Sequence record: OR589135.1
Length of the DNA stretch: 58,217 bases
Source: Pseudomonas phage UF_RH7
Strand: one strand, 5' to 3'
This document shows, piece after piece, positions 3,473 to 37,358 of the stretch (within the stretch, counting starts at the first letter, position 1; each line of letters opens with the position of its first letter). The notes under the pieces were generated by a model. It was not told the origin of the DNA. It saw only the letters and a list, made by a program, of their open reading frames with translations, and did no database searches. A program made the position numbers and the translations under genes.

Positions 3473-3856
3473 ATGTCTGAAGTTACCGTTAAAATCGAAA
3501 TTGTAGGCCTGGCTGACCTGATCGGCGCACTGAACACCCACACCCAGGCTCTGGCCGGCGGTGCTGCACCGACCGAAACCAAAACCACCAGCACCAAAAC
3601 GACTCCGGCCAAGGAAACCAAGCCGAAAGTCACCAAACCTAAAGCCTCCAAAGCTGAAGTGAGCACCGCCCTGGGCGAAGTGAAAGCGGCCTTCGGCATC
3701 GACGCTGCTCGCGAAATCATGTCCGAAAACGGCGGCTTCGCTAAAATGGCGGACATCACTCCTGAGCACTACGATGCTATCGTTGCTGCCTGTGCTGCAA
3801 AAATCGCGGAAAACGATGACGGCGCCGGCACCGAAGAAGAAGGCGACGGTCTGTAA
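3473..3856 (+). CDS. Hypothetical protein with Lys/Thr/Pro-rich linker and acidic C-terminal tail ...EEEGDGL.
   Basis: 127 aa. Strong SD (ggagaag) before the ATG. Low-complexity TETKTTSTKTTPAKETKPKVTKPK linker. Confidence 0.6.
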   Translation: MSEVTVKIEIVGLADLIGALNTHTQALAGGAAPTETKTTSTKTTPAKETKPKVTKPKASKAEVSTALGEVKAAFGIDAAREIMSENGGFAKMADITPEHYDAIVAACAAKIAENDDGAGTEEEGDGL

Positions 3857-3877
3857 GGCCTGATCTCTTCATCTTAG

Positions 3878-3906
3878 CAATAAACAAAGCCTGCCATCCG
3901 GCGGGC
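3878..3906 (+). terminator. Hairpin aaagcctgcc-atcc-ggcgggcttt followed by gtt (weak terminator or attenuator).
   Basis: Read from the sequence. The T-tract is poor, so this may be a partial terminator or RNA-processing hairpin. Confidence 0.35.
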
Positions 3907-3907
3907 T

Positions 3908-5227
3908 TTGTTCCAGAAGGGGGTAGTCTTGACCGAGCATAAGCTAGACCTGGATAAACTTGTAGCCGATCGAAACGGCCATTCCGTTTTCGGGCCATCC
4001 GGCAGTGCTATGTGGTCGACCTGCGCCGGCTCGCTTATCCCCAACTTGCTCGCTCCTGATGAAACGTCGTTCGAAGCCGCCGAAGGCACCGTGGCGCACG
4101 CCATAGCTGAGGAATGGCTGAAAACAGGCATCAAGCCCAAGCACCACCTGGGCACGACGCAAATAGTCGAAGAAAACGGCCTAAGATTCGAAATTGTGAT
4201 CGACGTCATAATGTTCGATTACATCAAATCGTATGTCGACTGGGTTCGCTTCCTTCCCGGTCAGCATTATGTCGAAAGGCGGGTCGATTTTTCCCGGCTT
4301 ATGCCGATACCGAAGCAAACGGGTACTGCCGATTTCATCGCGCTGGAGCACGGCAAGATGTGGATCAGAGACCTGAAATACGGCGCTGGCGTATACGTTG
4401 AGGTCGAAAACAACACCCAGGCGCTGCTGTATGCCCTCGGGGCGTTCTACGAATACGATGAAATCTATGATATTCAAGAGATTGACATCGGAATCGGCCA
4501 GCCTCGAATGGATAATTTCAGCACCTGGACCATTTCACGCGAAGAATTGCTGTCATGGGAACCGTATTTCAGGGAAACTGCAGCAGCGGCATGGAAAGTC
4601 AACGCGCCGCGCCATCCTTCAGTGAAGGGTTGCCGGTGGTGCAAGGTCAAAGCGACCTGCGGCGCCCAGGCTAAACTTCAGGAAGAGCTGGCAACGTTGG
4701 CGTTTGACGACCTGGCGGAAGACAAAACGGAACAGGACATCGAAGCGTTGAAAAACAGGATTACGGACGACCTTGAGCCGTATAAACTGGAGTTCGTCTC
4801 TCCGAGTGACCTTACCGTGGAGCAGATGGCCATCCTCGTACCGTATCGCCGCCTGGCGGAAATGTGGTGGAAGTCAATCGAGGATGAACTGGAAAAACGC
4901 CTGCAGGAAGGGGCGAAAGTGCCAGGCTATAAACTTGTCGATGGGCGAAAGTCGCGAGACTTCATCAACGAGAAAAAGGCAGCAGAGGAATTGGAGTGGC
5001 TAGGCCTCGAACCGGGTGAGATTTTTGAGCGTAAAATGATCTCGCCGGCGGAAGCTGAAAAACGTCTTCGCAAAAAGGGGTATCGCATGGCTGACATGCC
5101 GTCCCTTCTGAAAAAGATCGTTTATGCCAAGCCAGGGAAGCCAACGATGGCACCCGAAAGCGACAAAAGGGAAGCAGTGCAAGACATGGCCGGTGACGCG
5201 TTCGAAAGTATGGACGACGACCTGTAG
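3908..5227 (+). CDS. PD-(D/E)XK Cas4/RecB-like nuclease (DUF2800-like) with C-terminal Cys cluster; acidic tail ...SMDDDL.
   Basis: 439 aa as listed in the ORF track, which uses a TTG start at 3908. The real start is probably TTG at 3929 with SD aaggggg, because 3908 lies inside the upstream hairpin. CRWCKVKATC Cys motif. Paired with a gp2.5-like SSB as in DUF2800/DUF2815 modules. Confidence 0.6.
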   Translation: MFQKGVVLTEHKLDLDKLVADRNGHSVFGPSGSAMWSTCAGSLIPNLLAPDETSFEAAEGTVAHAIAEEWLKTGIKPKHHLGTTQIVEENGLRFEIVIDVIMFDYIKSYVDWVRFLPGQHYVERRVDFSRLMPIPKQTGTADFIALEHGKMWIRDLKYGAGVYVEVENNTQALLYALGAFYEYDEIYDIQEIDIGIGQPRMDNFSTWTISREELLSWEPYFRETAAAAWKVNAPRHPSVKGCRWCKVKATCGAQAKLQEELATLAFDDLAEDKTEQDIEALKNRITDDLEPYKLEFVSPSDLTVEQMAILVPYRRLAEMWWKSIEDELEKRLQEGAKVPGYKLVDGRKSRDFINEKKAAEELEWLGLEPGEIFERKMISPAEAEKRLRKKGYRMADMPSLLKKIVYAKPGKPTMAPESDKREAVQDMAGDAFESMDDDL

Positions 5228-5280
5228 CCAGAAAACCAGAAACCGTGAAAATCACGAAACCCGAATAGAAGGAATATCAC

Positions 5281-5880
5281 ATGGCTTTAGAAGTCGCTAA
5301 GAAAGTAAAAAACGCCGTTCTGTACACCAACGGCTGCATTCGCATCGACGGCGTTCGCGCTTCGTTCCCTCACCTGGATAAGCCATACGCAGGTGAAGAC
5401 GGCGGCACACCGGCTTACGGTTTGGTGAGCCTGCTGGACAAAACCACTCACAAAGAGGCGAAAGATCTCATTGTTGAGCGGATTAACGAAGTCCTGGCGC
5501 AGAACAAAAATGCGAAAGTTGCTGCTGATCGCAAATTCATCCGCAACGGCGACGACTCTGCCCGCGATGAAGAGAACGGCCATTGGACAGTATCCGCGCG
5601 CGAAACCAAGCGCCCTAGCATCCGCGATAAGGATAAGTCGGTGCTGTCACCTGAAGAAGCCCTGGATAAGATCTACGGTGGCTGCTTCGTAAACGTGCTT
5701 ATCCGTCCGTGGTTCCAGGATAATAAGTACGGCAAGCGCGTTAACGCAGGTCTGGTAGCGGTTCAGTTCCTCCGAGACGGCGAGGCCTTCGGTGAAGGTC
5801 GCATCGACGACGAAGAGGCGTGGGATGATGTCGACGACGGAAATGAAGGCTTCACCGACGATGATGAAGACGGCCTGTAA
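5281..5880 (+). CDS. T7 gp2.5-like single-stranded DNA-binding protein (DUF2815-like) with acidic C-terminal tail ...DDDEDGL.
   Basis: 199 aa. Pattern similarity to T7 gp2.5 (YGLVSLLDK...LIVERINE; GCFVNVLIRPWFQ...VNAGLVAVQFL). Acidic tail as in gp2.5, but the terminal residue is Leu instead of Phe. Confidence 0.65.
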   Translation: MALEVAKKVKNAVLYTNGCIRIDGVRASFPHLDKPYAGEDGGTPAYGLVSLLDKTTHKEAKDLIVERINEVLAQNKNAKVAADRKFIRNGDDSARDEENGHWTVSARETKRPSIRDKDKSVLSPEEALDKIYGGCFVNVLIRPWFQDNKYGKRVNAGLVAVQFLRDGEAFGEGRIDDEEAWDDVDDGNEGFTDDDEDGL

Positions 5881-5985: not shown

Positions 5986-6000
5986 CGAAAGGGGGAGGCC

Positions 6001-8106
6001 ATGTCCCAAACCGTAATCAACCTTGACTACGAAAGTAAATCGCCGGTTAACCTAAAGACGGAAGGGTTAGACCGGTATTCCGCGCATCGAGATACCGAAG
6101 TGATGATGGCCAGCTGGTCAATTAACGAAGGTACTGTCCAGCACTGGGATTACAACAACGGCCGCATGCCAGGCGAACTTCGCGAAGCGCTTGAAGATCC
6201 TGACGTGGAGAAGTGGGCATTCAACGCTCAATTCGAACGCATCATGACCCAGCGCGTTCTGAAGATAAAAACGCCATACGAGTCTTGGCGCTGTACGATG
6301 GTGCTGGCCTACATGCAAGGTTTCTCCGGCACGCTTGAACAGGTAGGCCGCAACGTCGGTCTACCGGATGACAAGCAGAAAATGGCAGACGGCAAACGCC
6401 TTATCCGTCTATTTTGCACGCCCCAAAAGCCCACAAAAAACCAGCCGCATATCTGGCGCGATCTGCTTACCGACCCAGACGAGTGGGAGCATTTCTGCCT
6501 GTATAACATCCGAGACACCGAAACCGAGATGGCCATCAAGCGCCGGCTGATAAAGTACCCAGTCCCGGCCTCCGAGTGGGCCCTGTACGCGCTTGACCAA
6601 CAGATCAATGACCGCGGAGTTCCGGTCGACATGGATTTCGTCAACAATGCAATCTGGATGGCGGCGCGCCGAAAAAAGGAACTCATTGCAGACCTGAAAA
6701 AGATCACGAAACTCGCTAACCCAAACTCCACGCCTCAGCTGCTCCCGTGGTTAAAAGAACGCGGATACCCGTTTGACGACATCCAGAAAGATACGGTGAA
6801 AAAGGTTGTTTCGATCCCTCTCGGAAAGCTGAAGCGCCAGCTGGATATTCGCCAAATGCTCAGCGTCGACGAGTACCTCGATGCAGATGACCCAGGAACT
6901 GTTCCTGTTGAAAAACAGCAGGAGATGAATCGCGCGCTGGACGTTCGGAAGAATGCCTCGCGCATCAGCATTAAAAAATACAACGCCATCGAGGCGGCGC
7001 GCGGCGAAGATGACCGGTTCCGGTTCTCTCTGCAGATGCACGGAGCCAGTCGGACAGGCCGATGGGCCGGGCGCCGGCTGCAGACGCAAAACCTTCCCCG
7101 GACGCCGAAGTTCCTGGAGGAAGACGAGGACTTGGAAATCGCTACCGAGATGATTCGCGCCGGCGAGTATGACATGTTCCAGCTCTATGTCGGGGAGCCG
7201 ATGGAAGCCCTGGTTGGCCTTGTACGATCGTCAATCCGCGCGTCAGAAGGCCGTGAACTCCGGGTGTGCGACCTTGCCTCGATTGAATCCGTGGTTATCG
7301 GCTGGATGTGCAAATGTGCGTGGCTAATGGGCGTTCTCGACCGCGGGCACGATATTTATCAGTCGTTCGGTGTCCATTTGTTCGGCAAGCCGTATGAGCG
7401 GGTAACGAAGGCAGAACGAAACATCTCCAAACCACCAACACTCGGCTGCGGCTACCGCCTTGGCGGCGGCGAGATGCGAGACGGAAAGAAAACCGGCCTG
7501 TGGGGCTACGCAGAAAACATGGGCGTAAACATGACTCAAGACGAGTCGATTTACGCAGTAAAAGTCTTCCGTGAACTCTGCCCGGAAATCGTTCAGACCT
7601 GGTATGACCTCGAAAGGGCTGTAGAGAAATGCGTCAGAACCGGGGCAACCGTTCAATGCGGTGTCATTCGGTTCGAGATGAAAAAACCGTACCTTTGTGC
7701 CGTCCTGCCGAGCGGGCGCCGCCTCTACTACTTCAAGCCGAGGATCGAAACCAAGCAGTTCGAGGGTAAAACCGGTCCATACACCAAGAAGAGCTTCAGC
7801 TACGAGGGCCAGGATCAGAAGACAGGCCAATGGACGCGAATTTACTCCCACGGTGGTAAGCTGGTGGAAAACTTCGTTCAGGCGATCGCCCGTGACATCA
7901 TCAAGGCCGGCTTGCTTCGCGCAGACCGCGCGGGCTTCGACATCGTGATGCACGTTCACGATGAAATCGTCACCGAGCAGCCGAAGAACGATGACGTTCG
8001 CACAGTGGCGCTTCTGTCCGAGTGCATGACGGCACCGATCAGCTGGGCGCCAGGACTTCCGCTCAAGGCCACCGGCTGGGCGGGGCAGTTTTACAAGAAG
8101 GACTGA
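6001..8106 (+). CDS. Family-A DNA polymerase with 3'-5' proofreading exonuclease domain; no acidic tail.
   Basis: 701 aa. Exo I DxE (LDYESK). Pol motif A (VCDLASIESV), motif B-like (KPPTLGCGYRLGG), motif C (MHVHDEIV). Confidence 0.85.
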   Translation: MSQTVINLDYESKSPVNLKTEGLDRYSAHRDTEVMMASWSINEGTVQHWDYNNGRMPGELREALEDPDVEKWAFNAQFERIMTQRVLKIKTPYESWRCTMVLAYMQGFSGTLEQVGRNVGLPDDKQKMADGKRLIRLFCTPQKPTKNQPHIWRDLLTDPDEWEHFCLYNIRDTETEMAIKRRLIKYPVPASEWALYALDQQINDRGVPVDMDFVNNAIWMAARRKKELIADLKKITKLANPNSTPQLLPWLKERGYPFDDIQKDTVKKVVSIPLGKLKRQLDIRQMLSVDEYLDADDPGTVPVEKQQEMNRALDVRKNASRISIKKYNAIEAARGEDDRFRFSLQMHGASRTGRWAGRRLQTQNLPRTPKFLEEDEDLEIATEMIRAGEYDMFQLYVGEPMEALVGLVRSSIRASEGRELRVCDLASIESVVIGWMCKCAWLMGVLDRGHDIYQSFGVHLFGKPYERVTKAERNISKPPTLGCGYRLGGGEMRDGKKTGLWGYAENMGVNMTQDESIYAVKVFRELCPEIVQTWYDLERAVEKCVRTGATVQCGVIRFEMKKPYLCAVLPSGRRLYYFKPRIETKQFEGKTGPYTKKSFSYEGQDQKTGQWTRIYSHGGKLVENFVQAIARDIIKAGLLRADRAGFDIVMHVHDEIVTEQPKNDDVRTVALLSECMTAPISWAPGLPLKATGWAGQFYKKD

Positions 8107-8108
8107 CC

Positions 8109-8378
8109 ATGACTATCAGAGAATCAAAGGTCGAAAGCGATATTCGGAAATATGCGGAAAAACGCGGCTGGTGGCAGTGCAAGTTCACGTCTCCAAGCCT
8201 GCGCGGCGTGCCAGATCGGATATTTATTCGAGCAGGCAGACACGTTTTCATCGAGGTGAAGAGACCCGGCAAAAAGGCAACAGCTCAGCAGAAAAAGCGC
8301 CACGTTGACATGCGTGAAAAAGGTGCTGAAGTTTACGTCATCGACTGCGTGGAGGATGCATATGCGATACTCGAGTGA
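8109..8378 (+). CDS. VRR-NUC domain nuclease.
   Basis: ATG at 8109, 2 nt after the polymerase stop. Motif RGVPDRIFIRAGRHVFIEVKRPGKK (PD-(D/E)XK, VRR-NUC-like). The ORF-track start at 8022 lies inside the polymerase gene. Confidence 0.7.
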   Translation: MTIRESKVESDIRKYAEKRGWWQCKFTSPSLRGVPDRIFIRAGRHVFIEVKRPGKKATAQQKKRHVDMREKGAEVYVIDCVEDAYAILE

Positions 8379-9876
8379 CCTTTACGAGACAATCCGGCGC
8401 CGGTTCGCTGGTGTTGAGCTGCAGGAAAATCAGCTACACCTCTATCAGGAGGACGCGATAGACTTCCTCGATACGAACCGTTATAGCGCGCTGTTCATTG
8501 ACATGGGCTTGGGGAAAACGATCATCTCCCTGACGCTGGCGTCCCGGCTTTTGAACGACTTCAAGGCCAACAGAGTCCTGGTCATAGCACCACTCCGCGT
8601 GGCCAATACCACCTGGCCGAACGAAATACGCTTGTGGGAACACACGGCTGGGTTCGATTTCACGGTGCTGACCGGCAGCGCTGAAGAGCGAATGACCGCG
8701 CTCAAGGAAGGCATGCACCGCAACTGCCCGATATTCATCATCAATCGCGAGCAGATCGAATGGCTGGCCGACATCTACGGCAACAAATGGCCGTTCGACA
8801 CCGTGTTTGTCGATGAAAGCTCGTCGCTGAAGGATCACACGACAAAACGTTTTAACGCGCTGAAAAACGTGCGCCGGTACATCCGCCGTTTGCACGAACT
8901 CACCGCGACGCCGGCGGCCGAGACATACTTGCACCTCTTCGCCCAAATTTACCTCCTGGATCAGGGAAAGCGCCTTGGCAAAGACATGCGTAATTTCACT
9001 GATAAATATTTCACATACAATCATTACAATCGCAAGTATAAGCTCCGCCCCGGCGCCGAAGAGGAAATCGTCAACCTGATTTCCGACATTTGCCTCGTCA
9101 TGAAGCGAGAAGACTACCTGGAATTCCAGCAGCCGATCTTCCACAACGTGATGATCGACATGTCGGCTAAGCAGCAGGCGCTATACAAAACGATGGCAAC
9201 CGAGTTCATCGTCGAACTGGATAACGGCGTTGAGGTCGAAGCAGAAACCGCCGCCGCTCTATCGAGCAAGCTGCTGCAGATGGCCTCCGGCGTCCTTTAC
9301 GATACCGTCGATCTGGAAGACGCCACCACCGGCGACGTAAAGCAGTTGAAAAAAGTCTACGAGCTGCACCGGCATAAAATTGACGAACTGGAGCGAATTT
9401 ACGAAGAGGCGAACGGCGAACCGATCCTGGTATCCTACCACTTCAAATCGTCACTCGACCGGCTGAAGAAGGCCTTCCCGAAAGCGGTGGCGATGGACAG
9501 AGAAGGCAAGGCTGTCGCGCAGTGGAACAAGAAGAAAATCCCGATGCTCCTGGTCCACCCGCAGAGCGCCGGGCACGGCCTTAACCTCCAAAAGGGAGGC
9601 CATCACATCGTGTTCTACGACATCCCATGGTCGCTGGAGCTGTACCTGCAGCTGATAGGCCGACTCGACCGCCAGGGGCAGCAGCACCCGGTAATTGTCC
9701 AGCACCTGATTTGCAGAGGCACGGTCGATAACCTGGTTATTGCAGCGCTGATGAAGAAAAACGATGCGCAGGATGCGCTGTTCAGGATGCTGAAGCGCGC
9801 GAGAGCCAAACTGAAGAAAGACCGTGCGGCCAAAGTCGACCTGGCCACCGAGGCGTTTGACGACGACGATCTGTGA
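8362..9876 (+). CDS. SNF2/SWI2-family helicase (SF2 ATPase); acidic tail ...AFDDDDL.
   Basis: Walker A DMGLGKT. DEAH-like VFVDESS. Helicase C motifs (QSAGHGLNLQ). Start chosen at ATG 8362 (GGAGG 6 nt upstream), overlapping the VRR-NUC end. Confidence 0.8.
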   Translation: MRYSSDLYETIRRRFAGVELQENQLHLYQEDAIDFLDTNRYSALFIDMGLGKTIISLTLASRLLNDFKANRVLVIAPLRVANTTWPNEIRLWEHTAGFDFTVLTGSAEERMTALKEGMHRNCPIFIINREQIEWLADIYGNKWPFDTVFVDESSSLKDHTTKRFNALKNVRRYIRRLHELTATPAAETYLHLFAQIYLLDQGKRLGKDMRNFTDKYFTYNHYNRKYKLRPGAEEEIVNLISDICLVMKREDYLEFQQPIFHNVMIDMSAKQQALYKTMATEFIVELDNGVEVEAETAAALSSKLLQMASGVLYDTVDLEDATTGDVKQLKKVYELHRHKIDELERIYEEANGEPILVSYHFKSSLDRLKKAFPKAVAMDREGKAVAQWNKKKIPMLLVHPQSAGHGLNLQKGGHHIVFYDIPWSLELYLQLIGRLDRQGQQHPVIVQHLICRGTVDNLVIAALMKKNDAQDALFRMLKRARAKLKKDRAAKVDLATEAFDDDDL

Positions 9877-10029: not shown

Positions 10030-10275
10030 ATGAGGACGCCTGCAGTGAACCAAACCCTGACCCAGTTCGAAGACCACATCGCCATGGGGCCAACATTCGC
10101 AGCGCGTTTGCTGGGGGTCGCCTACGCCACTTACGCCCAATACCGGAGCGGCCACCGCCGATTGCAGAAATACCACCAGCGCCACATCCAAGCGCTGATG
10201 CTGCTGAGCGACGAAGACCTGCAGAACTTAATAACGGAGCATATCCACAATGACCCAGGCAAAAAAGCCAGCTAA
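10030..10275 (+). CDS. Small hypothetical protein upstream of the terminase (possible DNA-binding protein).
   Basis: ORF 9982-10275, likely ATG at 10015 or 10030. Overlaps the small terminase start. Confidence 0.35.
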   Translation: MRTPAVNQTLTQFEDHIAMGPTFAARLLGVAYATYAQYRSGHRRLQKYHQRHIQALMLLSDEDLQNLITEHIHNDPGKKAS

Positions 10276-10825
10276 AAACAGCCTCGACGAAACGAGTTCC
10301 TCGATGCTTTATCAGGGCTGCAATTTATCGCAGCTCGGCATCTTGTTCCGCCGAGACCACCGAACTATTGTTGAGCGCATCCACGGCATAAAGCCGGCCG
10401 GCACGCGCGGCGGCCATAGCATTTATCAGGTTCACGAAGTTGCGCCGTACCTGGCCGACATTCCGCCGGACATCATTGAAGACCGCATCACGCGCATGCA
10501 CCACAATGAGCTGCCGAAGATGTTGACGAAAGAGTTCTGGGCCGGTCAGCGGAGCAAGCAGCTCTTCCAGCTGGAGGCCGGCGACCTTTGGCCGACCAGC
10601 AAGATCATCGATAAAGTCGGCGAGGCGTTCAAAACCTGTAAGATGTCGATCATGCTGCTGAGCGACGCGGTTGAGCGCGAGACCGAATTCACCGATCGGC
10701 AGCGCGAAAAGCTACGAGAATTAATTGACGGGACGCTCACCGATTTACACAAGTCGTTGGTTGAGCGCTTAACAGCGGACGATGGAGACGACAATGGCGA
10801 AAGTGACGAAGACGAAGACCTTTAA
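10250..10825 (+). CDS. Terminase small subunit, lambda Nu1-like (N-terminal wHTH); acidic tail ...SDEDEDL.
   Basis: 191 aa. Position immediately upstream of the gpA-like large terminase. N-terminal pattern resembles Nu1. Confidence 0.55.
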   Translation: MTQAKKPAKNSLDETSSSMLYQGCNLSQLGILFRRDHRTIVERIHGIKPAGTRGGHSIYQVHEVAPYLADIPPDIIEDRITRMHHNELPKMLTKEFWAGQRSKQLFQLEAGDLWPTSKIIDKVGEAFKTCKMSIMLLSDAVERETEFTDRQREKLRELIDGTLTDLHKSLVERLTADDGDDNGESDEDEDL

Positions 10826-29248: not shown

Positions 29249-29466
29249 CAATTTACGTTAAACCACAAGACCTGCCTAACGCGGGTCTCTGCGTAACTGG
29301 GGCGAAGGACTGGTTCCGCCAGTACAACCTGGATTTCCGCGAATTTATCTTCGGCGAAGGTTGCCCGGTAGAGGTGATGCGCGCTGCGGCGCCTAATGAC
29401 CCTCTCGGCGAACGTGCCTGTCAGGAAGCCGAAGCGCGGCATGCCCGCGAACAGGGAGCTGAATAA
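29245..29466 (+). CDS. Small hypothetical tail-module protein.
   Basis: 73 aa. ATGA-type overlap with its neighbours. Confidence 0.4.
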   Translation: MTIYVKPQDLPNAGLCVTGAKDWFRQYNLDFREFIFGEGCPVEVMRAAAPNDPLGERACQEAEARHAREQGAE

Positions 29467-31748
29467 TGGGTGGTAAGGGCAGCAAAAAGGCCGTCGTCGG
29501 CTACAAATACTTCATAACGATGCATGTGGCTATCTGCCATGGTGAGATCGACGCCATTCGCGGCCTCTGGTGGTCAGATAAAAAAGCGTGGGAAGGAAAC
29601 CTCGGTAAGACATCCGACGGCACCAGCGCGACTTTCTGGCAGACGAACACCGGGCTGTTCGGCGGTGATACGTCGGAAGGCGGCGTTGACGGACTGGTGG
29701 AAGTCGGGTTCGGCGGCGGTAATCAGCAGATGATCGGTATCCTGCCGAACGGCACCTACGACCCAGCGGTAATGCCGACGCTCGGCGGACGGTTCGGGTC
29801 ATACTGGCGTCCAGCGTGGCCGGAAATGGCATGCCAGTATCGCGGCCTCGCCGTTCTTTTCATGCACGGAAATTACATCGGCAACAACGCCTACATGAAA
29901 GAGATAAGTGTCGATGTAGAGCGTTTCTGGCGCGGCTGGTTCCCGGAGGTCGCGACGGTGAATGGCCATGCGAATGCGGCGCACATCATCTATGAATCGC
30001 TGACGAACCGTGTCTGGGGATTGGGGTACGACGTCGACTCCCTGGATGACGCGACATTCCGAGCGGCGGCGCAACGGCTTTACGACGAGGGCGTCGGCCT
30101 ATCGCTGCTATGGGACAGCGAGCAAGACCTGCAGGCCTTCATTGACGACATCAAGTCGTGTATCGACGCCTCGTTCTATCTGAACCGCCGAACCGGCAAG
30201 TGGGAACTGAAGCTGAACCGTCCCGGCGACCCGGTGAAAATGACGATCACCCCGGACAACGCCAAGCTGGTATCGTTCACCCGGAAGTCGCTGGGGGAAA
30301 CCTTCAATGAGATTTCGGTGAAATATACCAATCCCGAAACCGAGGATTACGTCAGCGTCACCGTGCAGGATACCGCGAACATCGAGTCGCAAGGCCGCGT
30401 CGTATCAACGACCAAGGAGTATATCGGCGTCCGGGACGAAGGCTTGGCGGTTCAGTTCGGCCAGCGCGACCTGCAGGTATCCTCGGCCACGTTGGCTACG
30501 GCGGAAGTGCTGTGTAACCGGGAAGCGTATGACATGTACCCCGGCGACGTCGGGCACTTCTCCTGGCCCGAGGACGGAATCATCAACCTTCGCATGCGCG
30601 CCGTCGAAGTTACCGTTAAGGCGGGCGGCGACGACCAGATCTCCATGAAGCTGGTGGAAGACGTCTTCGGCCAGGCGAATGGGTCGTTCAATGGCATCAG
30701 CCCGCCTGGCTGGGTTGACCCGCGCCAAAAAGCCACCCTGTTCGACGTTGTGCAGCCGTGGGAATTCCCGTTCTGGTTCGTTGTCCAGGGTTCGGGGATC
30801 TCCGTTGGTTCGCTGCCGACACTGGCCGCATACGGAACATCGTTTGCCGTCGGAACCAACCCAGACGCGCGGGCAGTGCGCCTGTTCGGCCGCCAGAATA
30901 CCCCGGATGGCGCTGCATGGGTGCTGGAGAACATCGGGCCGCAAACGCCTACCGCGACAACGGCCGCCGTGCTGCCACCCGCGCCGACCTCTACGTTCTC
31001 AATCGACCCCGGAACAGCGCGCCTGTTCAACAATATTGAGACGACCAGCTTCCTGGTGATGATCGGCGGCGGACGCCAAGAAATCATGTTGATCACTGCG
31101 GTATCGTCAGACCTGCAGACGTTCACCGTGATGCGCGGCTTGATGGATACGCACCCGTACAACTGGCCGGCCGGCACCCGTATTTTCTTCATGGGCGAGA
31201 ACTCATTCGTTTCCGATTACACACAGCGCTCGCTGGCAGAAACCGTGCAGTACCGTCCGGCCATGCAAACGTCGATTGACCAGATGGACGTCAACAGCGT
31301 GCCATCGGCGACGATCACAATGCGCGGTCGATACGAGCTGCCTTACTCAGTGGCCAACGTCCGCATTGAGGGGCAATACTGGCCGGCAAGCATTAACGCG
31401 GCCGACGTTTCATTCGAGGTTTCGTGGGCGAGCCGTAACCGCTTGCTGCAGGACGCCGCCACGCAGGTTCCGTGGGACGCCGGAAGCATCGCGCCGGAAG
31501 AAGGGACGCTGACGCACCTTGACCTCCTGGACGCCGGGGGAACCGCGGTAGTGGAGCTTCGGAACCTCACCGGATTGACGGCGGCCGTGCCGACTGACAA
31601 TCTGACGTCTGGTTCTTACACCGTGGTAGTGTGGACTACGCGAGACGGCCGCATGAACTACCAGGCATTCCGCCACACGTTTACCATTGACATCCCAACC
31701 CGCGACACCGGGTATGGCAACAGCTACGGCTTCGATTACGGCGAATAA
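29466..31748 (+). CDS. Tail tip / central fibre protein, lambda gpJ-like N-terminal portion (760 aa; lacks the gpJ C-terminal receptor-binding region).
   Basis: N-terminus MGGKGSKKAVVGYKYF versus gpJ MGKGSSKGHTP. Position after the L-like gene. Confidence 0.65.
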   Translation: MGGKGSKKAVVGYKYFITMHVAICHGEIDAIRGLWWSDKKAWEGNLGKTSDGTSATFWQTNTGLFGGDTSEGGVDGLVEVGFGGGNQQMIGILPNGTYDPAVMPTLGGRFGSYWRPAWPEMACQYRGLAVLFMHGNYIGNNAYMKEISVDVERFWRGWFPEVATVNGHANAAHIIYESLTNRVWGLGYDVDSLDDATFRAAAQRLYDEGVGLSLLWDSEQDLQAFIDDIKSCIDASFYLNRRTGKWELKLNRPGDPVKMTITPDNAKLVSFTRKSLGETFNEISVKYTNPETEDYVSVTVQDTANIESQGRVVSTTKEYIGVRDEGLAVQFGQRDLQVSSATLATAEVLCNREAYDMYPGDVGHFSWPEDGIINLRMRAVEVTVKAGGDDQISMKLVEDVFGQANGSFNGISPPGWVDPRQKATLFDVVQPWEFPFWFVVQGSGISVGSLPTLAAYGTSFAVGTNPDARAVRLFGRQNTPDGAAWVLENIGPQTPTATTAAVLPPAPTSTFSIDPGTARLFNNIETTSFLVMIGGGRQEIMLITAVSSDLQTFTVMRGLMDTHPYNWPAGTRIFFMGENSFVSDYTQRSLAETVQYRPAMQTSIDQMDVNSVPSATITMRGRYELPYSVANVRIEGQYWPASINAADVSFEVSWASRNRLLQDAATQVPWDAGSIAPEEGTLTHLDLLDAGGTAVVELRNLTGLTAAVPTDNLTSGSYTVVVWTTRDGRMNYQAFRHTFTIDIPTRDTGYGNSYGFDYGE

Positions 31749-31760: not shown

Positions 31761-32528
31761 ATGGCAGCATCACAAGGCCCTAACCTCGGCATTAACTATG
31801 GCTGGAATCTCGGAGAGAACGGCTGGAAACCCGGCATGGATGCCAACCTGAAAACGGTTGATGCGCTCCTGCACTTGGCTGTTAACGGGGTGGTCAATTC
31901 ACCGAGCGTCACGACGAACGGCACTCGTTATCTGGTATCGACGTCTCCCTCTGGCGACTTCGCGGGCCAGGCGGGGAAAATTGCAGTGCGAGTTGCCGGT
32001 GCGTGGGAGTTCTACGCTCCGAAAGCCGGGATGATAGCGCAGGTGATAAACCAGGAAACAGAGTACCTGTATACAGGTGGCCTGTGGAAACTTCGGTTCG
32101 GTGAGCAGACGCGCCTCGATGTTTCTGACCCGGCTGGGTTCCTGCTGCCGGCATCCAACTTCGCCAAGATCCCCCTGAATACCGTTAACGTCGACAACCG
32201 TTCTGGCTGGGACGCCGGCTCTTCCTCTTACACGCCGCCGCAAGACGGGCTATATTTGCTAACAGGCATCGCGCGCCCACGGAGAACGTCAACCGGAGCC
32301 ATCCCCGATAGCATTCCTTTCGCTCTCGGCGTCGGCGGGACTGCTGCTGACTCGGAAAATGTGGTATATAACTCGGGTCCAGTGGGTGGCGGCATCTTTA
32401 CTGTATCGGTTTCCCGCGTTGCCCGATTGACCACCAGCAGCACTGTTTTCCTGTTTGGACGGCATTACCACTCGGCGTCGGTGGCAGTTGACTCGGCGAA
32501 CCTCACAGTGGTCAGGCTCTCCGCTTAA
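31761..32528 (+). CDS. Tail-associated hypothetical protein (fibre or adaptor candidate).
   Basis: 255 aa. Sits between the J-like gene and the large fibre gene. Confidence 0.4.
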   Translation: MAASQGPNLGINYGWNLGENGWKPGMDANLKTVDALLHLAVNGVVNSPSVTTNGTRYLVSTSPSGDFAGQAGKIAVRVAGAWEFYAPKAGMIAQVINQETEYLYTGGLWKLRFGEQTRLDVSDPAGFLLPASNFAKIPLNTVNVDNRSGWDAGSSSYTPPQDGLYLLTGIARPRRTSTGAIPDSIPFALGVGGTAADSENVVYNSGPVGGGIFTVSVSRVARLTTSSTVFLFGRHYHSASVAVDSANLTVVRLSA

Positions 32529-32557
32529 TCACCAGAACTTATTGGAAGGACTTCAAC

Positions 32558-34630
32558 ATGGCAGACCAAGATTACCCGCAGCTATATCAGCAAATGAAGG
32601 ACTCGGCGCAGGCCATGTCCGATGCTGCCGTGGCCAACAAGCAGATGATGACGGCGGATGAAAACACCGACGTGACGATTCCGGGGTATGGGCCGAAGCC
32701 TTCCTACTCCAAACAGATCCTGGCGATGACGCAGAGTGTCATATCCAACGCGCCGTATTCCTTTGCGGGCAAGGTATACGACACCCCGGCTCAAGGCGTC
32801 ACGCAACCGGGTGGCGTGGGCGAAGGGAAGTTCTACAATGCGCGCGTGCCGGGTAACGAAGACGTCTACATCGGGGAGTACCAGAACATCGGCGGCGTGG
32901 CCACTCCGGTTCTGAACTCTTCCGGCCAGCCCATCATCTACCCGACTGACGTGTTCATCCTGAAGAAGTTCAATCAGGTCGTCGACATGGTGAACATGCT
33001 GCTGCCGAACAACGGCATTTTCAACGTCGCCGGCGAGAATGCGATGGAGATCGCCGGCAGCAACAAGACAACGGCCGCGTCGATCGACAAACTCGGCATC
33101 CTAAATCTGTTCGGCGGGTTGAACGTGCTGGATCTTCAGGTTCTTCCGCTCAACCCCAACAGCGAATACTGCCATGCGTGGGGGTCTAAAACTCAAACCA
33201 TCCTTGGTATCGGTAAGGCAGGATGGATTGAGTTCTTTGGCATGTTCCGTCTGCAGATCGTAGAAGGCCCGAACATTATTGAAATCGTTGACATCAACAA
33301 CAAGATGACCGCAGGCCTGGATAAGGACGGAACGGCGTTTACCAAGGGCGTCGACGAGACACCGGAAGGCGATGCCTTCCTTGACTTCGTTGAGCGCATG
33401 CACCTGATCATCTACGGGCAGTCGCTGTCAAACGGTGCTGTTGGCGTTCCGGTATTGAATACGCCGGTTTCCGACGCCCTGATGTTCAATACCGGGGTTC
33501 GGAGCTATCAGAAAAATCCGGCGTCATTAGTCGACCTGAAAGAAAATCAAGAAGGGACTAACGGCGAAACGATCGCTTCCGGGCTTGTCCATGGTTTTGT
33601 CGCTAAGTGCGGCGGGATGTACGGGCGCAAACTTATCCTCAACGCTGGCGGCGTTAATGGTGCGACAATTCAGCAGATCTCGAAGGGCACGGCGTCCTAC
33701 AACCAAGTCATCACCAACGTCACCTGGACGGCGGGTCTGATGGCTACGGAAGGCCGTCAGTACAGCCCGGACTTCATGCCTTATCTGCAGGGCGAGGCCA
33801 ACATGAACATCGGGACGCCGAAGGAGACCTATAAGACGTTGCTATCCACACTCTACAGCGACTTCAACAACGATCTGCGTCCTGTTCGTGGTTCCGGCCT
33901 GGAGATGGTGATGCTGACCTATCAAACATCATCCCACGGCTACTACAACGGCGCGCCGGGGTTCCCGCCGGAGGATATTGCACAGGGGCAGTTGGAATTA
34001 GCGCTGACTCACTCTCACATTGATATGTGGGGGCCGACCTATATGTGCAAGAAAGGCGACTCGACAACGCCCGGCCACGCCAACGTTCACCACAACAACC
34101 ACGGCTACCGACTGCAGGGTCTGTATGCTCAGAAAGTCATCCGCCACCGCCTGCGCACCCGCAGCGCCGAAAACCCAGAAGGCGAGAAGTACATTCCGGT
34201 GCATGCCAAGTCGGCCAAGAAGATAAACGATACAACCGTGCTGGTGGACGTTCACACCTACCACCCGCCATTGGTGATTGATGCATCTCTGGTCACCGAA
34301 TTGCCGGACGGCAATCACGGGGTTGAGCTTCACGATTCCACCGGCCGTTTAACGATCGCCAGCGTTTCTATTGTCGGCGGTACTAAAATCAAGGTAGTCT
34401 CTCAAACAGCAATCGGCTCAGGCGCGTTCGTGGCGTTTGCCTGGACGCCGGATAACCGCGGCCCGCTTGACGAAAACAATAAATACCCTGAATGGTTCTT
34501 CGGGAGAGAAACTGGGGTGAGAACCACGATCCACGATTCTGACCCGGAGACCACTGATCTGGTCAACGAAAACGGCGCGAACTATCCGCTGTTCAATTAC
34601 ATGGCCATTCAAAAACTGGAGATCGTATAA
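32558..34630 (+). CDS. Tail fibre / receptor-binding protein with a possible SGNH/SASA-like esterase motif.
   Basis: 690 aa. GQSLSNG at about residue 280 resembles the GDS(L)/GQSNM nucleophile block of SGNH and sialate-O-acetylesterase-like hydrolases. Low-confidence domain call. Confidence 0.4.
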   Translation: MADQDYPQLYQQMKDSAQAMSDAAVANKQMMTADENTDVTIPGYGPKPSYSKQILAMTQSVISNAPYSFAGKVYDTPAQGVTQPGGVGEGKFYNARVPGNEDVYIGEYQNIGGVATPVLNSSGQPIIYPTDVFILKKFNQVVDMVNMLLPNNGIFNVAGENAMEIAGSNKTTAASIDKLGILNLFGGLNVLDLQVLPLNPNSEYCHAWGSKTQTILGIGKAGWIEFFGMFRLQIVEGPNIIEIVDINNKMTAGLDKDGTAFTKGVDETPEGDAFLDFVERMHLIIYGQSLSNGAVGVPVLNTPVSDALMFNTGVRSYQKNPASLVDLKENQEGTNGETIASGLVHGFVAKCGGMYGRKLILNAGGVNGATIQQISKGTASYNQVITNVTWTAGLMATEGRQYSPDFMPYLQGEANMNIGTPKETYKTLLSTLYSDFNNDLRPVRGSGLEMVMLTYQTSSHGYYNGAPGFPPEDIAQGQLELALTHSHIDMWGPTYMCKKGDSTTPGHANVHHNNHGYRLQGLYAQKVIRHRLRTRSAENPEGEKYIPVHAKSAKKINDTTVLVDVHTYHPPLVIDASLVTELPDGNHGVELHDSTGRLTIASVSIVGGTKIKVVSQTAIGSGAFVAFAWTPDNRGPLDENNKYPEWFFGRETGVRTTIHDSDPETTDLVNENGANYPLFNYMAIQKLEIV

Positions 34631-35335
34631 ATGACCTTACAAATCGTTGTTAAACAGCCGTTCACCAATCCGCTGTTCCCTCCGTCTGACGCGGTATCGC
34701 TTATTTACCGAGATTCCGCTCAGGGGATTTACGAAATGCTTTCGTCCTATGACCGCAGCGGCAAAGGAAACCACCTGAAGGTGAACGGCCATACGTTCGG
34801 GCCGCAAGGTCTCATTTCCACGCCGAACACCGCGCATTACGCCGACACGGGTATCATGCTGCCGAACACGTTTTCCATGATCTTCTCGCACTACATTGCT
34901 GCGGCGCCGACGGCTACCGGGAACATCTATTCTAACCTGAACCCAGGGGCGAATCCGTTCACCGGTACTCGAATGGCAGTTTCGTCTGCGGGCGGTGCCG
35001 GTAGCTTTGCGATCGGCCAACAAGGCGGATCGGCGTTCTTGTTAAATATTGGCGGCATTGTCTCCGGCTGGACGACTTATTGTTTCTCCGTGAATGGCGG
35101 CCACTACCGACTCACCCGTCAAAACGGACAGACGTTCGAGGGTGATATTCCGGGAACAGTAGCGCCGGGCATTGTTCCGGTTCGCCTGGCTGGTGGGTAT
35201 ATCCCAACCGTGAACATTCCGATGGACGGGATTTTGGGTCTGGCCGGGATTTACTTCGAAGATCTGACGGTAGCTCAGCAGCTTGACCTAATCACAAAGG
35301 CACGGCAAATATTAGCTCGGCGAGGTATTGCTTAA
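34631..35335 (+). CDS. Hypothetical tail fibre-associated protein (possible fibre assembly or second receptor-binding protein).
   Basis: 234 aa. Start overlaps the fibre stop (TAAATG). Gly-rich. Confidence 0.4.
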   Translation: MTLQIVVKQPFTNPLFPPSDAVSLIYRDSAQGIYEMLSSYDRSGKGNHLKVNGHTFGPQGLISTPNTAHYADTGIMLPNTFSMIFSHYIAAAPTATGNIYSNLNPGANPFTGTRMAVSSAGGAGSFAIGQQGGSAFLLNIGGIVSGWTTYCFSVNGGHYRLTRQNGQTFEGDIPGTVAPGIVPVRLAGGYIPTVNIPMDGILGLAGIYFEDLTVAQQLDLITKARQILARRGIA

Positions 35336-35345
35336 ACCAATCAGA

Positions 35346-35372
35346 AAAGCGCTCTACACGGGCGCTTTTTTA
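35346..35372 (+). terminator. Hairpin agcgc...gcgct + tttttt after the tail genes, followed by tandem TATAAT hexamers.
   Basis: Read from the sequence. May separate the tail operon from the lysis cassette, with a -10-like tataattataat just downstream. Confidence 0.45.
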
Positions 35373-35405
35373 TAATTATAATTAGTCCGAATCTTATAAC
35401 ACAGC

Positions 35406-35831
35406 ATGGGCAGGGTGATCATAATGTCAGAACCGATTTCTGCAGGAACGGCCACGGCCGTAGTCGGTGGTGTAGCAACCGCCGGCTGGTATGCCGGTAT
35501 CGACGCCGGCGTGGTTGTTTGTGCATTCGCGGGCGCCGTGTTTTACGTCACCCAGGCAAAGGATATTTCGAAGTGGGCACGGTTAGGTTTCTTCCTGGTG
35601 AGCTTCGTAGCAGGCATCGCCGCCAGCAGACCGGCCGCTGAACTAATCTCAGCCGTTGTTCCGACAAAAAGCCAGATCCCGGAAGCCGTCGGCGCGTTGG
35701 CCGCAGCTGCCTCCGCCGTGAACCTTCTGCTGGCTCTGAATGTCAAAACCATTGGCAGCAAGATTTTAGGTTTCGTCGGCTCGGCCATCGCCAACGGCAT
35801 GAATAAGGGCGGAGGGAACGATGGTAAGTGA
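35406..35831 (+). CDS. Holin-like membrane protein (3-4 TMs).
   Basis: 141 aa. Multiple hydrophobic helices. First gene of the lysis cassette. Confidence 0.5.
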   Translation: MGRVIIMSEPISAGTATAVVGGVATAGWYAGIDAGVVVCAFAGAVFYVTQAKDISKWARLGFFLVSFVAGIAASRPAAELISAVVPTKSQIPEAVGALAAAASAVNLLLALNVKTIGSKILGFVGSAIANGMNKGGGNDGK

Positions 35832-36156
35832 AATCCTCGTAACAGGAACCACGGTCGACGTGGTTCTTATCGCATACAACGCGATTGTGTGCTGCATCAC
35901 CTCCCTGGCGCTGATGTTCTTCGAGCGCAATGGGGCGACGCACCGCCGCTGGGCATCGTGGATTGCATGGGCGCTCTGCGTGTCCTACATGTCATTCCCG
36001 ATCCGATTCCTGTTTGGCCAGGTTCTCGCTATAGACTGGTCAACTCTCGTCATCAACACCGTCTTCTGTGCTGCGATCATCTGCCTCCGGGGCAACGTAG
36101 CGCAGCTATTCAAAAATTCTGGAGCCACGCATGGCACTAACGCAAAAAGATTATGA
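35821..36156 (+). CDS. Second holin/antiholin-like membrane protein (3 TMs).
   Basis: 111 aa. Hydrophobic helices. Directly upstream of the endolysin. Confidence 0.5.
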   Translation: MVSEILVTGTTVDVVLIAYNAIVCCITSLALMFFERNGATHRRWASWIAWALCVSYMSFPIRFLFGQVLAIDWSTLVINTVFCAAIICLRGNVAQLFKNSGATHGTNAKRL

Positions 36157-36715
36157 GCAGGCCGCCGGCCGCCTTTCAATTCAGGTCGCCGCGCTGCGGG
36201 CTTTCGCCGAAGTGGAAAGCAACGGCAGTGGGTTTATTGACGGCGTGCGGCCGAAAGTCCAGTACGAACCGCACGTCATGTATCGACGCCTGGTCCTGAA
36301 TAAAGATCGCGCGTTCGCCAATTACGCCCTGGGCAAGTGGCCGGATCTGGTCTCCACTAAGCCCGGCAGCTATCAGTCGCTGAACAAGGAAGACGAGGAC
36401 ATGGGGCGCGCCGCCAAGTTCATCGACCGTCGAAGCGCGCTGGAGGCATCGAGCTGGGGCGCATTCCAGATCATGGGTTACCACTGGAAAACCTGCGGCT
36501 ACGAAAACATCCAGCAGTTCGTCAACGCGCAATACAGCGACGCTGGCCAGCTCGATTCTCTGGTGCGCTTCCTGTTGGCCAACCCAGGCATCCTGAAAGC
36601 CATCCGCGAGAAGAACTGGGCGCGCGCCGCCGAGCTGTACAACGGTCCTGGGTACAAGGCCAATAAGTACGATACCAAACTGGACGCCGCGTTCAGGAAA
36701 TACGGGGGTGTTTGA
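36131..36715 (+). CDS. Endolysin, N-acetylmuramidase-type (DUF3380 / pfam11860-like).
   Basis: 194 aa. Motif AFAEVESNGSGF typical of phage muramidases. Followed by a spanin pair. Confidence 0.6.
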   Translation: MALTQKDYEQAAGRLSIQVAALRAFAEVESNGSGFIDGVRPKVQYEPHVMYRRLVLNKDRAFANYALGKWPDLVSTKPGSYQSLNKEDEDMGRAAKFIDRRSALEASSWGAFQIMGYHWKTCGYENIQQFVNAQYSDAGQLDSLVRFLLANPGILKAIREKNWARAAELYNGPGYKANKYDTKLDAAFRKYGGV

Positions 36716-37098
36716 TGCAGATAGTTAACTGGAAGGGCTACCTGGCCGCCAGTGCAGCGACAGCGGTCATCACGGCCGCTGTTTGCTTTTGGCTCGCCGG
36801 GCGGCATTATCAGCCGACGATCGATAACCTGAACCGCGAGCTGGGAACCTGCAGCACCGCGCGCCAGTCTGCCGAGAACACCGTCGCTTATCAGAACGGC
36901 ACGATCGAGCGAATGAAGGCCGACGCGGACAAACGGAAGCAGGACGGCGATAAGAAGCAGGATTCCGCGGCCTCAGAAGCCCGTGGAGACTATGCAAAGG
37001 CTCAAGAGGTAATGACGGAAGCCGTGGACATGGCGAACGAGTGTAGAAGCGCTCAGGAAGCCTTTGCGAACGAACTGAAACAGGAGCGCGCCAGATGA
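36712..37098 (+). CDS. i-spanin (Rz-like): N-terminal transmembrane helix plus coiled coil.
   Basis: 128 aa. Single N-terminal TM, charged helical periplasmic domain. Confidence 0.6.
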   Translation: MMQIVNWKGYLAASAATAVITAAVCFWLAGRHYQPTIDNLNRELGTCSTARQSAENTVAYQNGTIERMKADADKRKQDGDKKQDSAASEARGDYAKAQEVMTEAVDMANECRSAQEAFANELKQERAR

Positions 37099-37358
37099 TC
37101 AGAATTGCAGCCGTTGTGGCCATCGCTCTATCGATCGCCGCGTGCAGCACCAAGCCGGCGACGCCGACGTTCGTTGAAGTGAAAGTCCCGGTGACGGTGC
37201 CGTGCCAGGCTAAGCCGGTTGAGCAGCCCGTGTTCGCGGTTGACCTGCTGAAGAGTGATGCCAGTATCTCGGCGATGATGAAGGCTTTGAGGGCGGAGCG
37301 CCACCAGCGCATCGGGTATGAGAGGCAGCTGGTGGCAGCGATCGAGGCGTGTCGTTAA
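37095..37358 (+). CDS. o-spanin (Rz1-like outer-membrane lipoprotein), separate (non-embedded) architecture.
   Basis: 87 aa. Lipobox LSIAAC. Pro-rich mature region. Confidence 0.65.
   Translation: MIRIAAVVAIALSIAACSTKPATPTFVEVKVPVTVPCQAKPVEQPVFAVDLLKSDASISAMMKALRAERHQRIGYERQLVAAIEACR

Follow-up and report, generated by a model that had tools for sequence, protein, structure and literature searches.

Pseudomonas phage UF_RH7 (sequence record OR589135.1) was analysed over its whole deposited length of 58,217 nucleotides, hereafter the window. Between positions 3473 and 37358 it carries a single train of plus-strand genes, which the original prediction, made from the sequence alone, described as a mosaic of a T7-type replication module joined to a near-complete lambda-type morphogenesis module. 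The question raised by this locus is whether two such modules really meet here. The gene train is present in the order described, and the observation was largely accurate, but its interpretation was half right: UF_RH7 is an ordinary member of the Casjensviridae (Chi/Nazgul-like phages), in which the head, but neither the tail nor the replication module, is of lambda type; the guess at a Chi-like family holds. The label of a T7 x lambda mosaic overstates the case, and the architecture was already known.

Family placement and genome ends

With positions 3473-28000 as a megablast query, the closest relatives were Serratia phage vB_SmaS-Smarc1 (MT952160; 90% identity over 99% of the query) and MA11 and MA12, two Newforgelanevirus (Casjensviridae) phages of Pectobacterium (81% identity across 99% of the 24.5-kb query). 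Since 92.6% of the whole window aligns to Smarc1 at 88.6% identity, the two phages fit within one genus as separate species. UF_RH7 resembles the rest of the family in its length (58.2 kb, the range being 55-62 kb), its 12-nt cos overhang and the start of its small terminase gene (TerS) at ~10.25 kb. The comparison with relatives that had been proposed as a check gave the same gene order in Salmonella phage Chi (Chivirus) and other Casjensviridae: 26 consecutive UF_RH7 proteins match Chi gp2-gp31, colinearly and at 26-62% identity, and the order is the same in BcepNazgul, A18P4, ASh-2020a, FoX4 and Stilesk. According to the Chi genome paper, cos and terminase are separated in that phage by over 10 kb, a space that holds polymerase, primase and nuclease genes. 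The announcement of the UF_RH7 genome (2024, OR589135; PMC11008205) reported 58,217 bp, 82 open reading frames (ORFs), a lytic phage of the Casjensviridae and a circular genome. In our analysis the window very probably represents the near-complete linear cos genome of a lytic Casjensviridae siphovirus, the left arm of which keeps a family-conserved, ancestral arrangement.

The right end of the record carries two features:

58193-58204, plus strand: cos overhang GGGGCGCGGAGC, identical to the annotated Smarc1 cos overhang
up to 58217, plus strand: Illumina adapter of 13 nt, AGATCGGAAGAGC, directly after the cos overhang

The cos of Chi agrees with this overhang at 10 of 12 bases. At the left end, position 1 of the window falls 128 bp into the Smarc1 map, so that ~116 bp are absent. 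Because of the cos sequence followed by AGATCGGAAGAGC at one end and the offset against Smarc1 at the other, the deposited record is to be read as a linear cos genome with adapter contamination, ~116 bp short, and not as circular as published. An assembly chimera is unlikely, the window being colinear with Smarc1 from end to end.

Several points weigh against the reading of the window as a near-complete linear Casjensviridae genome. The ~116 bp are missing relative to Smarc1, and the authors of the genome called it circular. The reported host, P. aeruginosa, fits badly with Serratia and Pectobacterium relatives, a GC content of 56% and a fibre of a Serratia/Klebsiella family, and for these reasons that host looks doubtful. 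The functions of UF_RH7 genes are assigned by homology only, the isolation of the phage being all that is known experimentally. Finally, deep homology of the proteins at the FII, U, V, G and H positions to their lambda counterparts is neither shown nor excluded at the available sensitivity.

The original prediction had rediscovered the layout of a published phage, and as stated the finding matters little, because the head genes of BcepNazgul already bear lambda names and the family's binding protein for single-stranded DNA (SSB) has been classed as T7-type since 2017. Its value lies in corrected labels: a tail tip of the Chi/JBD30/gene transfer agent (GTA) kind, a primase-helicase unrelated to T7 gp4, gpI as a stand-alone plug, and gpK absent. 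Two further matters could weigh more, namely acidic C-terminal tails with a lineage-specific last residue, which suggest a testable docking mechanism for replisome and packaging proteins, and the adapter at the cos end together with the doubtful host in the deposited record.

Head, tail and tail tip

All window proteins were compared by BLASTP with all lambda and T7 proteins; the identities to lambda proteins given in the following list of packaging and head genes come from that comparison.

10250..10825, plus strand: small terminase, DUF1441 (not Phage_Nu1) by Pfam, C-terminus ..SDEDEDL; no lambda Nu1 match
10782..12887, plus strand: large terminase, gpA type (GpA_ATPase 3e-67, GpA_nuclease 4e-55; lambda A 24% identity, E 8e-17)
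12905..13135, plus strand: gpW-type head-tail adaptor (Pfam gpW 7e-15; lambda W 44% identity, E 4e-10)
13135..14769, plus strand: portal, lambda gpB family (Phage_portal_2 1e-87; lambda B 38% identity, E 2e-102)
14762..16078, plus strand: S49 prohead protease with a Nu3-like scaffold C-terminal part (Peptidase_S49 9e-35; lambda C 33.5% identity, E 6e-56; lambda Nu3, inside C, 26% identity, E 1e-7)
16093..16494, plus strand: head decoration protein, gpD type (HDPD 5e-13; lambda D 32% identity, E 1e-6)
16507..17562, plus strand: major capsid protein, gpE type (Phage_cap_E 1e-46; lambda E 29% identity, E 3e-34)
17644..17901, plus strand: FI-position protein, DUF7443 by Pfam, C-terminus ..KKEEDL; matches Chi gp18; no lambda FI match

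Beyond A, W, B, C, Nu3, D and E, none of the window proteins matched a lambda protein at E < 0.04 by BLASTP. A tblastn search of lambda and T7 proteins against the six-frame window was consistent with this picture overall, although lambda A gave no match below E = 0.1 there; for this protein BLASTP and Pfam were relied on. The head proteins fall into lambda's Pfam families far above the curated cut-offs. Of the short motifs that had been cited in favour of kinship, the window and lambda carry identical copies of PGYVKPK (E), NNVGNFGG (L) and GPAGF (W), but MGGKGSKK is missing from lambda J, which starts with MGKGSSKG. At the Nu1 and FI positions, for which no BLASTP match was found in the window, stand the DUF1441 and DUF7443 proteins. 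Judged by homology, the packaging and head half can be classed as a lambda-type module, Nu1 and FI excepted.

Within the protease gene, an in-frame ATG at Met303 with GGAG upstream provides a possible internal start. Together with the C-terminal Nu3 alignment and the nested "Nu3 protein" annotated in the BcepNazgul record (AY357582), it makes a nested Nu3-like scaffold plausible in UF_RH7. That older record also names Lambda W, Lambda B, Nu3, decorator D, capsid E and a G-T frameshift protein, so that the lambda-like head of the Casjensviridae was recognised long ago.

The neck and tail genes follow in lambda order:

17901..18260, plus strand: neck 'stopper' at the FII position (PDB Chi 8vhx_F 'Neck 2' 5.8e-24); no lambda FII match
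18257..18880, plus strand: gpZ-like tail completion protein (phrog_27, common to lambda Z)
18873..19406, plus strand: tail terminator at the gpU position (PDB Chi 8vhx_C 7.8e-43; outside phrog_37 and Phage_tail_U)
19438..20223, plus strand: tail tube protein (NCBIfam tail_tube_6XGR 2.7e-64; PDB 8vhx_G, 6xgr)
20235..20947, plus strand: tail assembly chaperones G (20235-20681) and GT (to 20947) (Pre_tape_measure 1e-44)
20940..25424, plus strand: tape measure, 1494 amino acids (aa) (TMP_3; 33% identical to Chi gp25)

The chaperone pair and the length of the tape measure had been recognised correctly. A -1 frameshift heptamer, A AAA AAG, lies at 20600-20606, the shifted frame is open to 20947, and its end overlaps the start of the tape measure at 20940. 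At 0.15 nm per residue, 1494 aa give 224 nm, while scaling from Chi (a 1431-aa tape measure and a 230-nm tail, Chi genome paper) gives ~240 nm; a tail of ~225-240 nm is thus predicted.

The lambda names proposed for most of the other tail genes could not be upheld by sequence. Lambda Nu1, FI, FII, U, V, G, T, H and M found no significant match by BLASTP, tblastn, Pfam, PHROGs or PDB profiles. Among lambda's own Pfam families, Phage_Nu1, Phage_attach, Minor_tail_Z, Phage_tail_U, Phage_TTP_12, Phage_TAC_2, TMP_2 with Tape_meas_lam_C, Phage_min_tail and Phage_tail_L are unmatched by window proteins, those at the FII, U, V and M positions having been scanned to E <= 10. Phage-tail_3, in a 760-aa J-type protein, is the sole lambda tail Pfam family in the window. 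The only PHROG in common with lambda is phrog_27 (Z), yet the window protein does not match Pfam Minor_tail_Z. Four-sequence PDB profiles of the FII-, U- and L-position proteins, which are shallow, did not reach lambda chains. Solved chains of Chi were matched by sequence for the tube (8vhx_G, 4e-75), the terminator (8vhx_C, 8e-43) and Neck 2 (8vhx_F, 6e-24) and, in the tip, for Baseplate hub 1 (8vjh_D, 2e-28), the distal tail protein (8vjh_B, 8e-10), Minor tail protein (8vjh_A, 2e-46) and, at E = 0.4, Tail assembly protein 1 (8vjh_U). The claim of a lambda-type morphogenesis module thus stands for the head, while its 'near-complete' tail amounts mostly to synteny and shared siphovirus folds: the tail is lambda-like in order and plan, and by sequence of the Chi/JBD30/GTA kind.

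Next come the genes of the tail-tip region:

25433..28144, plus strand: distal tail protein, residues ~466-903 of 903 aa (DUF2460 at 470-530; phrog_1082 at 466-900)
28167..29015, plus strand: baseplate hub at the gpL position, 282 aa, with a Cys4 Fe-S site and NNVGNFGG (Phage_BR0599 1e-12)
29027..29248, plus strand: stand-alone gpI C-terminal 'insertion/plug' domain, 73 aa (alignment and family profile to lambda gpI)
29245..29466, plus strand: small tail-assembly protein, 73 aa, Chi gp29 homologue (phrog_1196; alignment z ~8 to Chi gp29)
29466..31748, plus strand: J-type hub or central tail protein, 760 aa (Phage-tail_3 2e-9, also in lambda J)

The first of these had been described as lambda M fused to a 470-aa N-terminal domain. 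A distal-tail module does begin at about residue 466, but the lambda M family (Phage_min_tail) is unmatched. Foldseek with the 903-aa protein returned the distal tail proteins of Chi (8vjh_B, 1.5e-12) and JBD30 (8rk3_D, 1e-10) and T5 pb9 (0.02); the AlphaFold model was poor (mean pLDDT 47, five-sequence alignment), and only the Chi and JBD30 matches were trusted. Word-index searches for homologues of the 73-aa and of the 903-aa protein yielded only five relatives apiece. The N-terminal ~465 aa (25433-26830) form a predicted all-helical domain with no counterpart in Chi. A weak fold match of this domain to the alpha/alpha-barrel 3k7x, from a low-confidence model, is a hint only.

The hub carries cysteines 147, 157, 248 and 255, which correspond to Chi Cys146/155/237/244 and lambda gpL Cys173/182/205/212, the residues that hold the Fe-S cluster (PMC10721106). 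In local alignment the likeness to lambda gpL is found only at the Fe-S cysteine and NNVGNFGG end. The protein belongs to Phage_BR0599/TIGR02218 and not to Phage_tail_L, and a profile search reaches RcGTA g13, not gpL. PDB searches matched it to Chi gp27, JBD30, R4C and RcGTA g13, and JBD30 (8rk3), R4C (8gtc) and RcGTA g13 (6tba/6teh) are among the tail-tip PDB matches. The gene-transfer-agent distal tail, hub and megatron NCBIfam models gave weak, sub-threshold matches.

Two 73-aa proteins had been thought to replace K and I. As far as gpK (MPN and NlpC/P60) is concerned, no match was found anywhere in the window, and since gpK is absent, gpK/gpI-type processing would not be needed here. The product of 29027-29248, however, retains part of I: its pairwise score against lambda gpI 143-200 is 60 (shuffles 23 +/- 4), and of 84 reference proteins searched with a hidden Markov model (HMM) built from 97 stand-alone plug-family members, lambda gpI was the only one outside Chi to match (residues 138-201, E=1.6e-4). 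Its Chi counterpart is gp28 (chain 8vjh_U), and residues 135-223 of gpI are the plug resolved in the lambda tip (PMC10721106). An exhaustive profile search gathered at least 808 representatives of the family, most of them stand-alone and ~75 aa long. In some cases the domain is joined to the N-terminus of a larger protein (700-2300 aa); Phage-tail_3 occurs in 21 of 42 longer relatives, whereas Lambda_tail_I was absent by Pfam from all 42, the fusions showing J-type domains only. As the 73-aa protein matches the very segment of gpI that plugs the tip, lambda I is reduced to its virion-resident plug domain and not replaced.

The J-type protein is indeed truncated and followed by separate fibre genes. 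It matches JBD30 8rk3_o (2e-50) and Chi gp30 (2e-46) in the PDB, aligns with Chi gp30 from residue 1 to ~718, and lacks by Pfam the lambda J C-terminal domains FNIII-A_GpJ, Ig_J, Phage_Tail_Tip and Ig_GpJ_C. Two structural reports (PMC11945409, PMC10721106) describe a Chi tip built on lambda's plan of distal tail, hub, central and insertion proteins. By sequence the UF_RH7 tip is closer to Chi, JBD30, R4C and RcGTA than to lambda.

Downstream of J the fibre genes bear on the receptor:

31761..35335, plus strand: DUF2793 protein, 690-aa fibre (acetylesterase/SASA family) and 234-aa protein (Pfam, PHROGs, homologues)

Across 32915-35343 no alignment is obtained to Smarc1, which is otherwise 88.6% identical. 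The 690-aa protein itself has no Pfam match at E <= 0.01; many of its homologues, from Serratia/Klebsiella prophages and a Serratia phage, contain the SASA domain PF03629, and this family suggests a polysaccharide receptor. Such a fibre speaks against the idea, originally advanced as tentative, that UF_RH7 is a flagellotropic phage like Chi. Membership in the same family and a tape measure comparable in length to that of Chi (1494 and 1431 aa, the Chi tail measuring 230 nm) favour that idea, but UF_RH7 has nothing that corresponds to the last 580 aa of Chi gp30 or to gp32-36, and non-flagellotropic Casjensviridae with swapped fibres are documented (PMC12264135). Flagellotropism is therefore rather improbable and, with the C-terminal half of gp30 and gp32-36 absent, not inferable, while the likeness to Chi holds at family level.

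Replication genes, acidic tails and the module junction

The genes between the left end and the terminase are:

407..2992, minus strand: primase-helicase with Prim-Pol, PriCT_2 and DUF5906/SF3, C-terminus ..EDVDDDL (Pfam; 37% identical to Chi gp2)
3473..3856, plus strand: Chi gp4-like protein with acidic tail ..EEEGDGL (46% identity to Chi gp4; phrog_7721)
3908..5227, plus strand: Cas4-like PD-(D/E)XK nuclease, start codon uncertain, C-terminus ..SMDDDL (DUF2800 1e-81, PDDEXK_1)
5281..5880, plus strand: SSB of gp2.5 fold with acidic tail ..DDDEDGL (Enc34_ssDNA-bd 4e-24; PDB 5odj 1.6e-52)
6001..8106, plus strand: family-A DNA polymerase with N-terminal DxE exonuclease motif, ending in FYKKD (DNA_pol_A 4e-11)
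8109..8378, plus strand: VRR-NUC-type endonuclease (weak VRR_NUC 0.0077; 56% identity to Chi gp9)
8362..9876, plus strand: SNF2-family helicase, C-terminus ..FDDDDL (SNF2-rel_dom, Helicase_C)

The description of these genes as T7-type was correct for an SSB with gp2.5-like fold and acidic tail and for a family-A polymerase with a DxE motif. The Enc34 ORF6 SSB was classed as T7-type on structure in 2017 (root-mean-square deviation 1.55 A to gp2.5, ~15% identity; PMC5686142). By BLASTP and tblastn, no window protein matched a T7 protein, including gp2.5, gp4 and gp5, at E < 0.1; no match to a T7-type phage RNA polymerase was found in the window, and the polymerase reached Taq/Klenow only at E=0.004. 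The supposed T7-like primase-helicase proved to be an AEP/SF3 protein encoded on the minus strand, outside 3473-37358, and its helicase part matches the NrS-1 'Primase' in the PDB (6k9e, 1.7e-11). The Cas4-like nuclease was rightly named (DUF2800/PDDEXK_1) but is no T7 feature, T7 lacking it. The label 'T7-type' thus fits the SSB fold and the polymerase superfamily only; it agrees loosely with the notion of a compact replisome encoded by the phage, and not at all with the primase-helicase or the accessory genes.

In a deep sense UF_RH7 is a mosaic, its replication and head modules having different relatives. Searched by tblastn, the polymerase finds Chi-like phages first and then Streptococcus, Staphylococcus, Paenibacillus, Liberibacter, Xylella, Bacteroides and Jersey-like phages; with the portal, Chi-like phages are followed by Rhodobacter phages, N15 and lambda. 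In Staphylococcus phage 47 the same nuclease-SSB-PolA-primase/helicase-VRR-NUC-SNF2 set stands beside unrelated genes. The junction between the modules is common to Chi, BcepNazgul, FoX4, A18P4, ASh-2020a and Stilesk, and no GC step marks it (0.535-0.569 across 2-20 kb). As the layout is common to the whole family, the junction is old and not the product of a recent T7 x lambda recombination. The original explanation, a chimera of a T7-type replication module and a near-complete lambda morphogenesis module, can point to A, W, B, C/Nu3, D and E, which are lambda homologues in lambda order, to the gp2.5 fold and acidic tail of the SSB, to a family-A polymerase and to T7-like acidic C-terminal tails on several replisome proteins. 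It is nonetheless very unlikely: to the lack of any T7 match at E < 0.1 and of a T7 RNA polymerase are added a primase-helicase of AEP and SF3 type, not of DnaG and DnaB type, SNF2, VRR-NUC and Cas4-like genes, none of them a T7 feature, ten Pfam families of lambda's tail and packaging proteins unmatched even at E <= 10, and hub and distal tail proteins of GTA/JBD30 type, while the family-wide age of the layout contradicts a recent origin. That UF_RH7 is a temperate lambdoid phage or a prophage fragment is hardly credible, since, for all its lambda-type head genes and cos site and an integrase in its relative RcPescado, the window yielded no match for lambda's Int, Xis and cI or for the integrase of RcPescado, the phage is described as lytic (PMC11008205), and it has its own polymerase and primase instead of O/P-type initiators.

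In UF_RH7 as an ordinary lytic member of the Casjensviridae, 3473-37358 covers the family's conserved left arm, with a replication cassette from the left cos end to the terminase, head, tail and fibre genes, and a lysis cassette. To judge from domain content, the divergent family-A polymerase would copy the DNA, the AEP primase-SF3 helicase fusion would prime and unwind, the gp2.5-fold SSB would coat single strands, and the Cas4-like and VRR-NUC nucleases with the SNF2 helicase would process intermediates into concatemers. By homology to lambda, the DUF1441 small and gpA-type large terminase cut at the 12-nt cos and fill a prohead made of the gpB portal, the S49 protease with its putative nested Nu3-like scaffold and the gpE capsid protein, the filled head being stabilised by gpD trimers. 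By homology to the solved Chi structures, the neck consists of the gpW adaptor, the stopper and the terminator. On the same basis, the tail grows on the tape measure held by the -1-frameshift G/GT chaperones, starting at a cone-shaped tip made up of a hexamer of the distal tail protein, one trimer each of the Fe-S hub and the J-type protein, and the small gpI-like plug.

A feature that runs across these modules is an acidic run with a terminal Leu at the C-terminus, found in 10-11 window proteins against ~0.05 expected by chance (our own residue-frequency estimate). It is carried by the primase-helicase, the Chi gp4-like protein, the Cas4-like nuclease, the SSB, the SNF2 helicase, the small terminase, the FI-position protein, an RdgC-like protein and three small right-arm proteins. 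The right-arm ORFs with such a tail are:

39784-40140, minus strand: acidic run and Leu
44160-44699, minus strand: acidic run and Leu
46762-47061, minus strand: acidic run and Leu
47058-48131, minus strand: acidic run and Leu

Orthologues keep the tail, and each genome has a last residue of its own, namely Val for Chi and Stilesk, Ile for Aeromonas A18P4, Gly-Leu for BcepNazgul and Leu for Smarc1 and MA11, FoX4 having mostly Leu and ASh-2020a being mixed. In the partial 13AC503A locus both available orthologues, TerS and the FI-position protein, end in Leu. The polymerase is never acidic-tailed and always ends in FY(K/R)KD. T7 gp2.5 and gp4 end in DF, and their tails bind gp5. From the common tails, their lineage-specific last residue and this T7 precedent, a shared docking site can be tentatively proposed: the tails may form a C-terminal docking code read by one phage-encoded pocket, by analogy that of the polymerase, which would organise the replisome and tie it to packaging. 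We regard this as possible, if somewhat less probable than the contrary. No description of a docking code for Casjensviridae tails was found in the searchable literature; if true, it would carry the T7 tail-docking principle over to an entire replisome, and to the terminase and an FI-like factor besides.

Remaining genes and comparison with named systems

Beyond the fibres, the plus-strand train closes with the lysis genes:

35406..37358, plus strand: lysis cassette of two holins, muramidase, i-spanin and o-spanin (Pfam, PHROGs)

The spanins (36712-37358) are encoded by two slightly overlapping ORFs, the i-spanin with an N-terminal membrane helix and the o-spanin with a lipobox IAAC; in contrast to lambda Rz/Rz1, the genes are separate and not embedded. 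The right arm (37360-51400, minus strand) encodes a 507-aa C5 cytosine methylase, the RdgC-like protein, an Rv2179c-like 3'-5' exoribonuclease, a YpsA/SLOG protein, a Phage_VG64 protein and a DUF7768/DUF1937-type protein, the Smarc1 orthologue of which is annotated as nucleoside 2-deoxyribosyltransferase; most other ORFs belong to no family. GC content falls to 0.47 at 52001-54000, where transcription turns back to the plus strand, against 0.55-0.61 elsewhere.

Compared with its nearest relatives, UF_RH7 is colinear almost genome-wide with Smarc1 (88.6%) and with MA11 and MA12 (~81%), and the cos of Smarc1 is identical. Alignment to Smarc1 is lacking in the fibre genes (32915-35343) and in several short parts of the right arm, and the reported host of UF_RH7, P. 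aeruginosa, is another difference.

With T7, UF_RH7 shares an SSB of gp2.5 fold with an acidic tail (PMC5686142), a family-A polymerase, a fused primase-helicase, and acidic C-terminal tails ending in a hydrophobic residue on its SSB and helicases. It differs in the lack of any sequence match, in an AEP and SF3 fusion where T7 has DnaG and SF4, in having no phage RNA polymerase, and in its extra SNF2, VRR-NUC and Cas4-like genes.

In the comparison with lambda, A, W, B, C/Nu3, D and E have homologues here that keep lambda's order, Z lies in a common PHROG, and the Cys4 Fe-S end of L, the gpI plug domain, the Phage-tail_3 core of J and the G/GT -1 frameshift are shared. On the other hand, the proteins at the Nu1, FI, FII, U, V, G/T, H and M positions are not detectably related by sequence, K is missing, I is cut to 73 aa, J is without its receptor-binding end, 10 kb separate the terminase genes from cos, and there are no lysogeny genes.

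The RcGTA/JBD30/R4C tip is defined by DUF2460, a DUF2163-BR0599 hub and a megatron/J-domain. UF_RH7 differs from it in NCBIfam scores below the family cut-offs, in having no gp14/gpK-type peptidase, and in a plug that is a separate 73-aa protein.

Chi (8VHX, 8VJH) differs from UF_RH7 in a tube protein longer by ~120 aa, in the lack of the extra ~465-aa N-terminal domain of the distal tail protein, in a J-type protein of 1296 aa compared with 760 aa, in the possession of gp5 and gp32-36, which are absent from UF_RH7, and in a major capsid protein only 43% identical. The two phages nevertheless share the gene order from the primase to the first fibre gene at 26-62% protein identity, 10 of 12 cos bases, and the same parts list of neck and tail tip.

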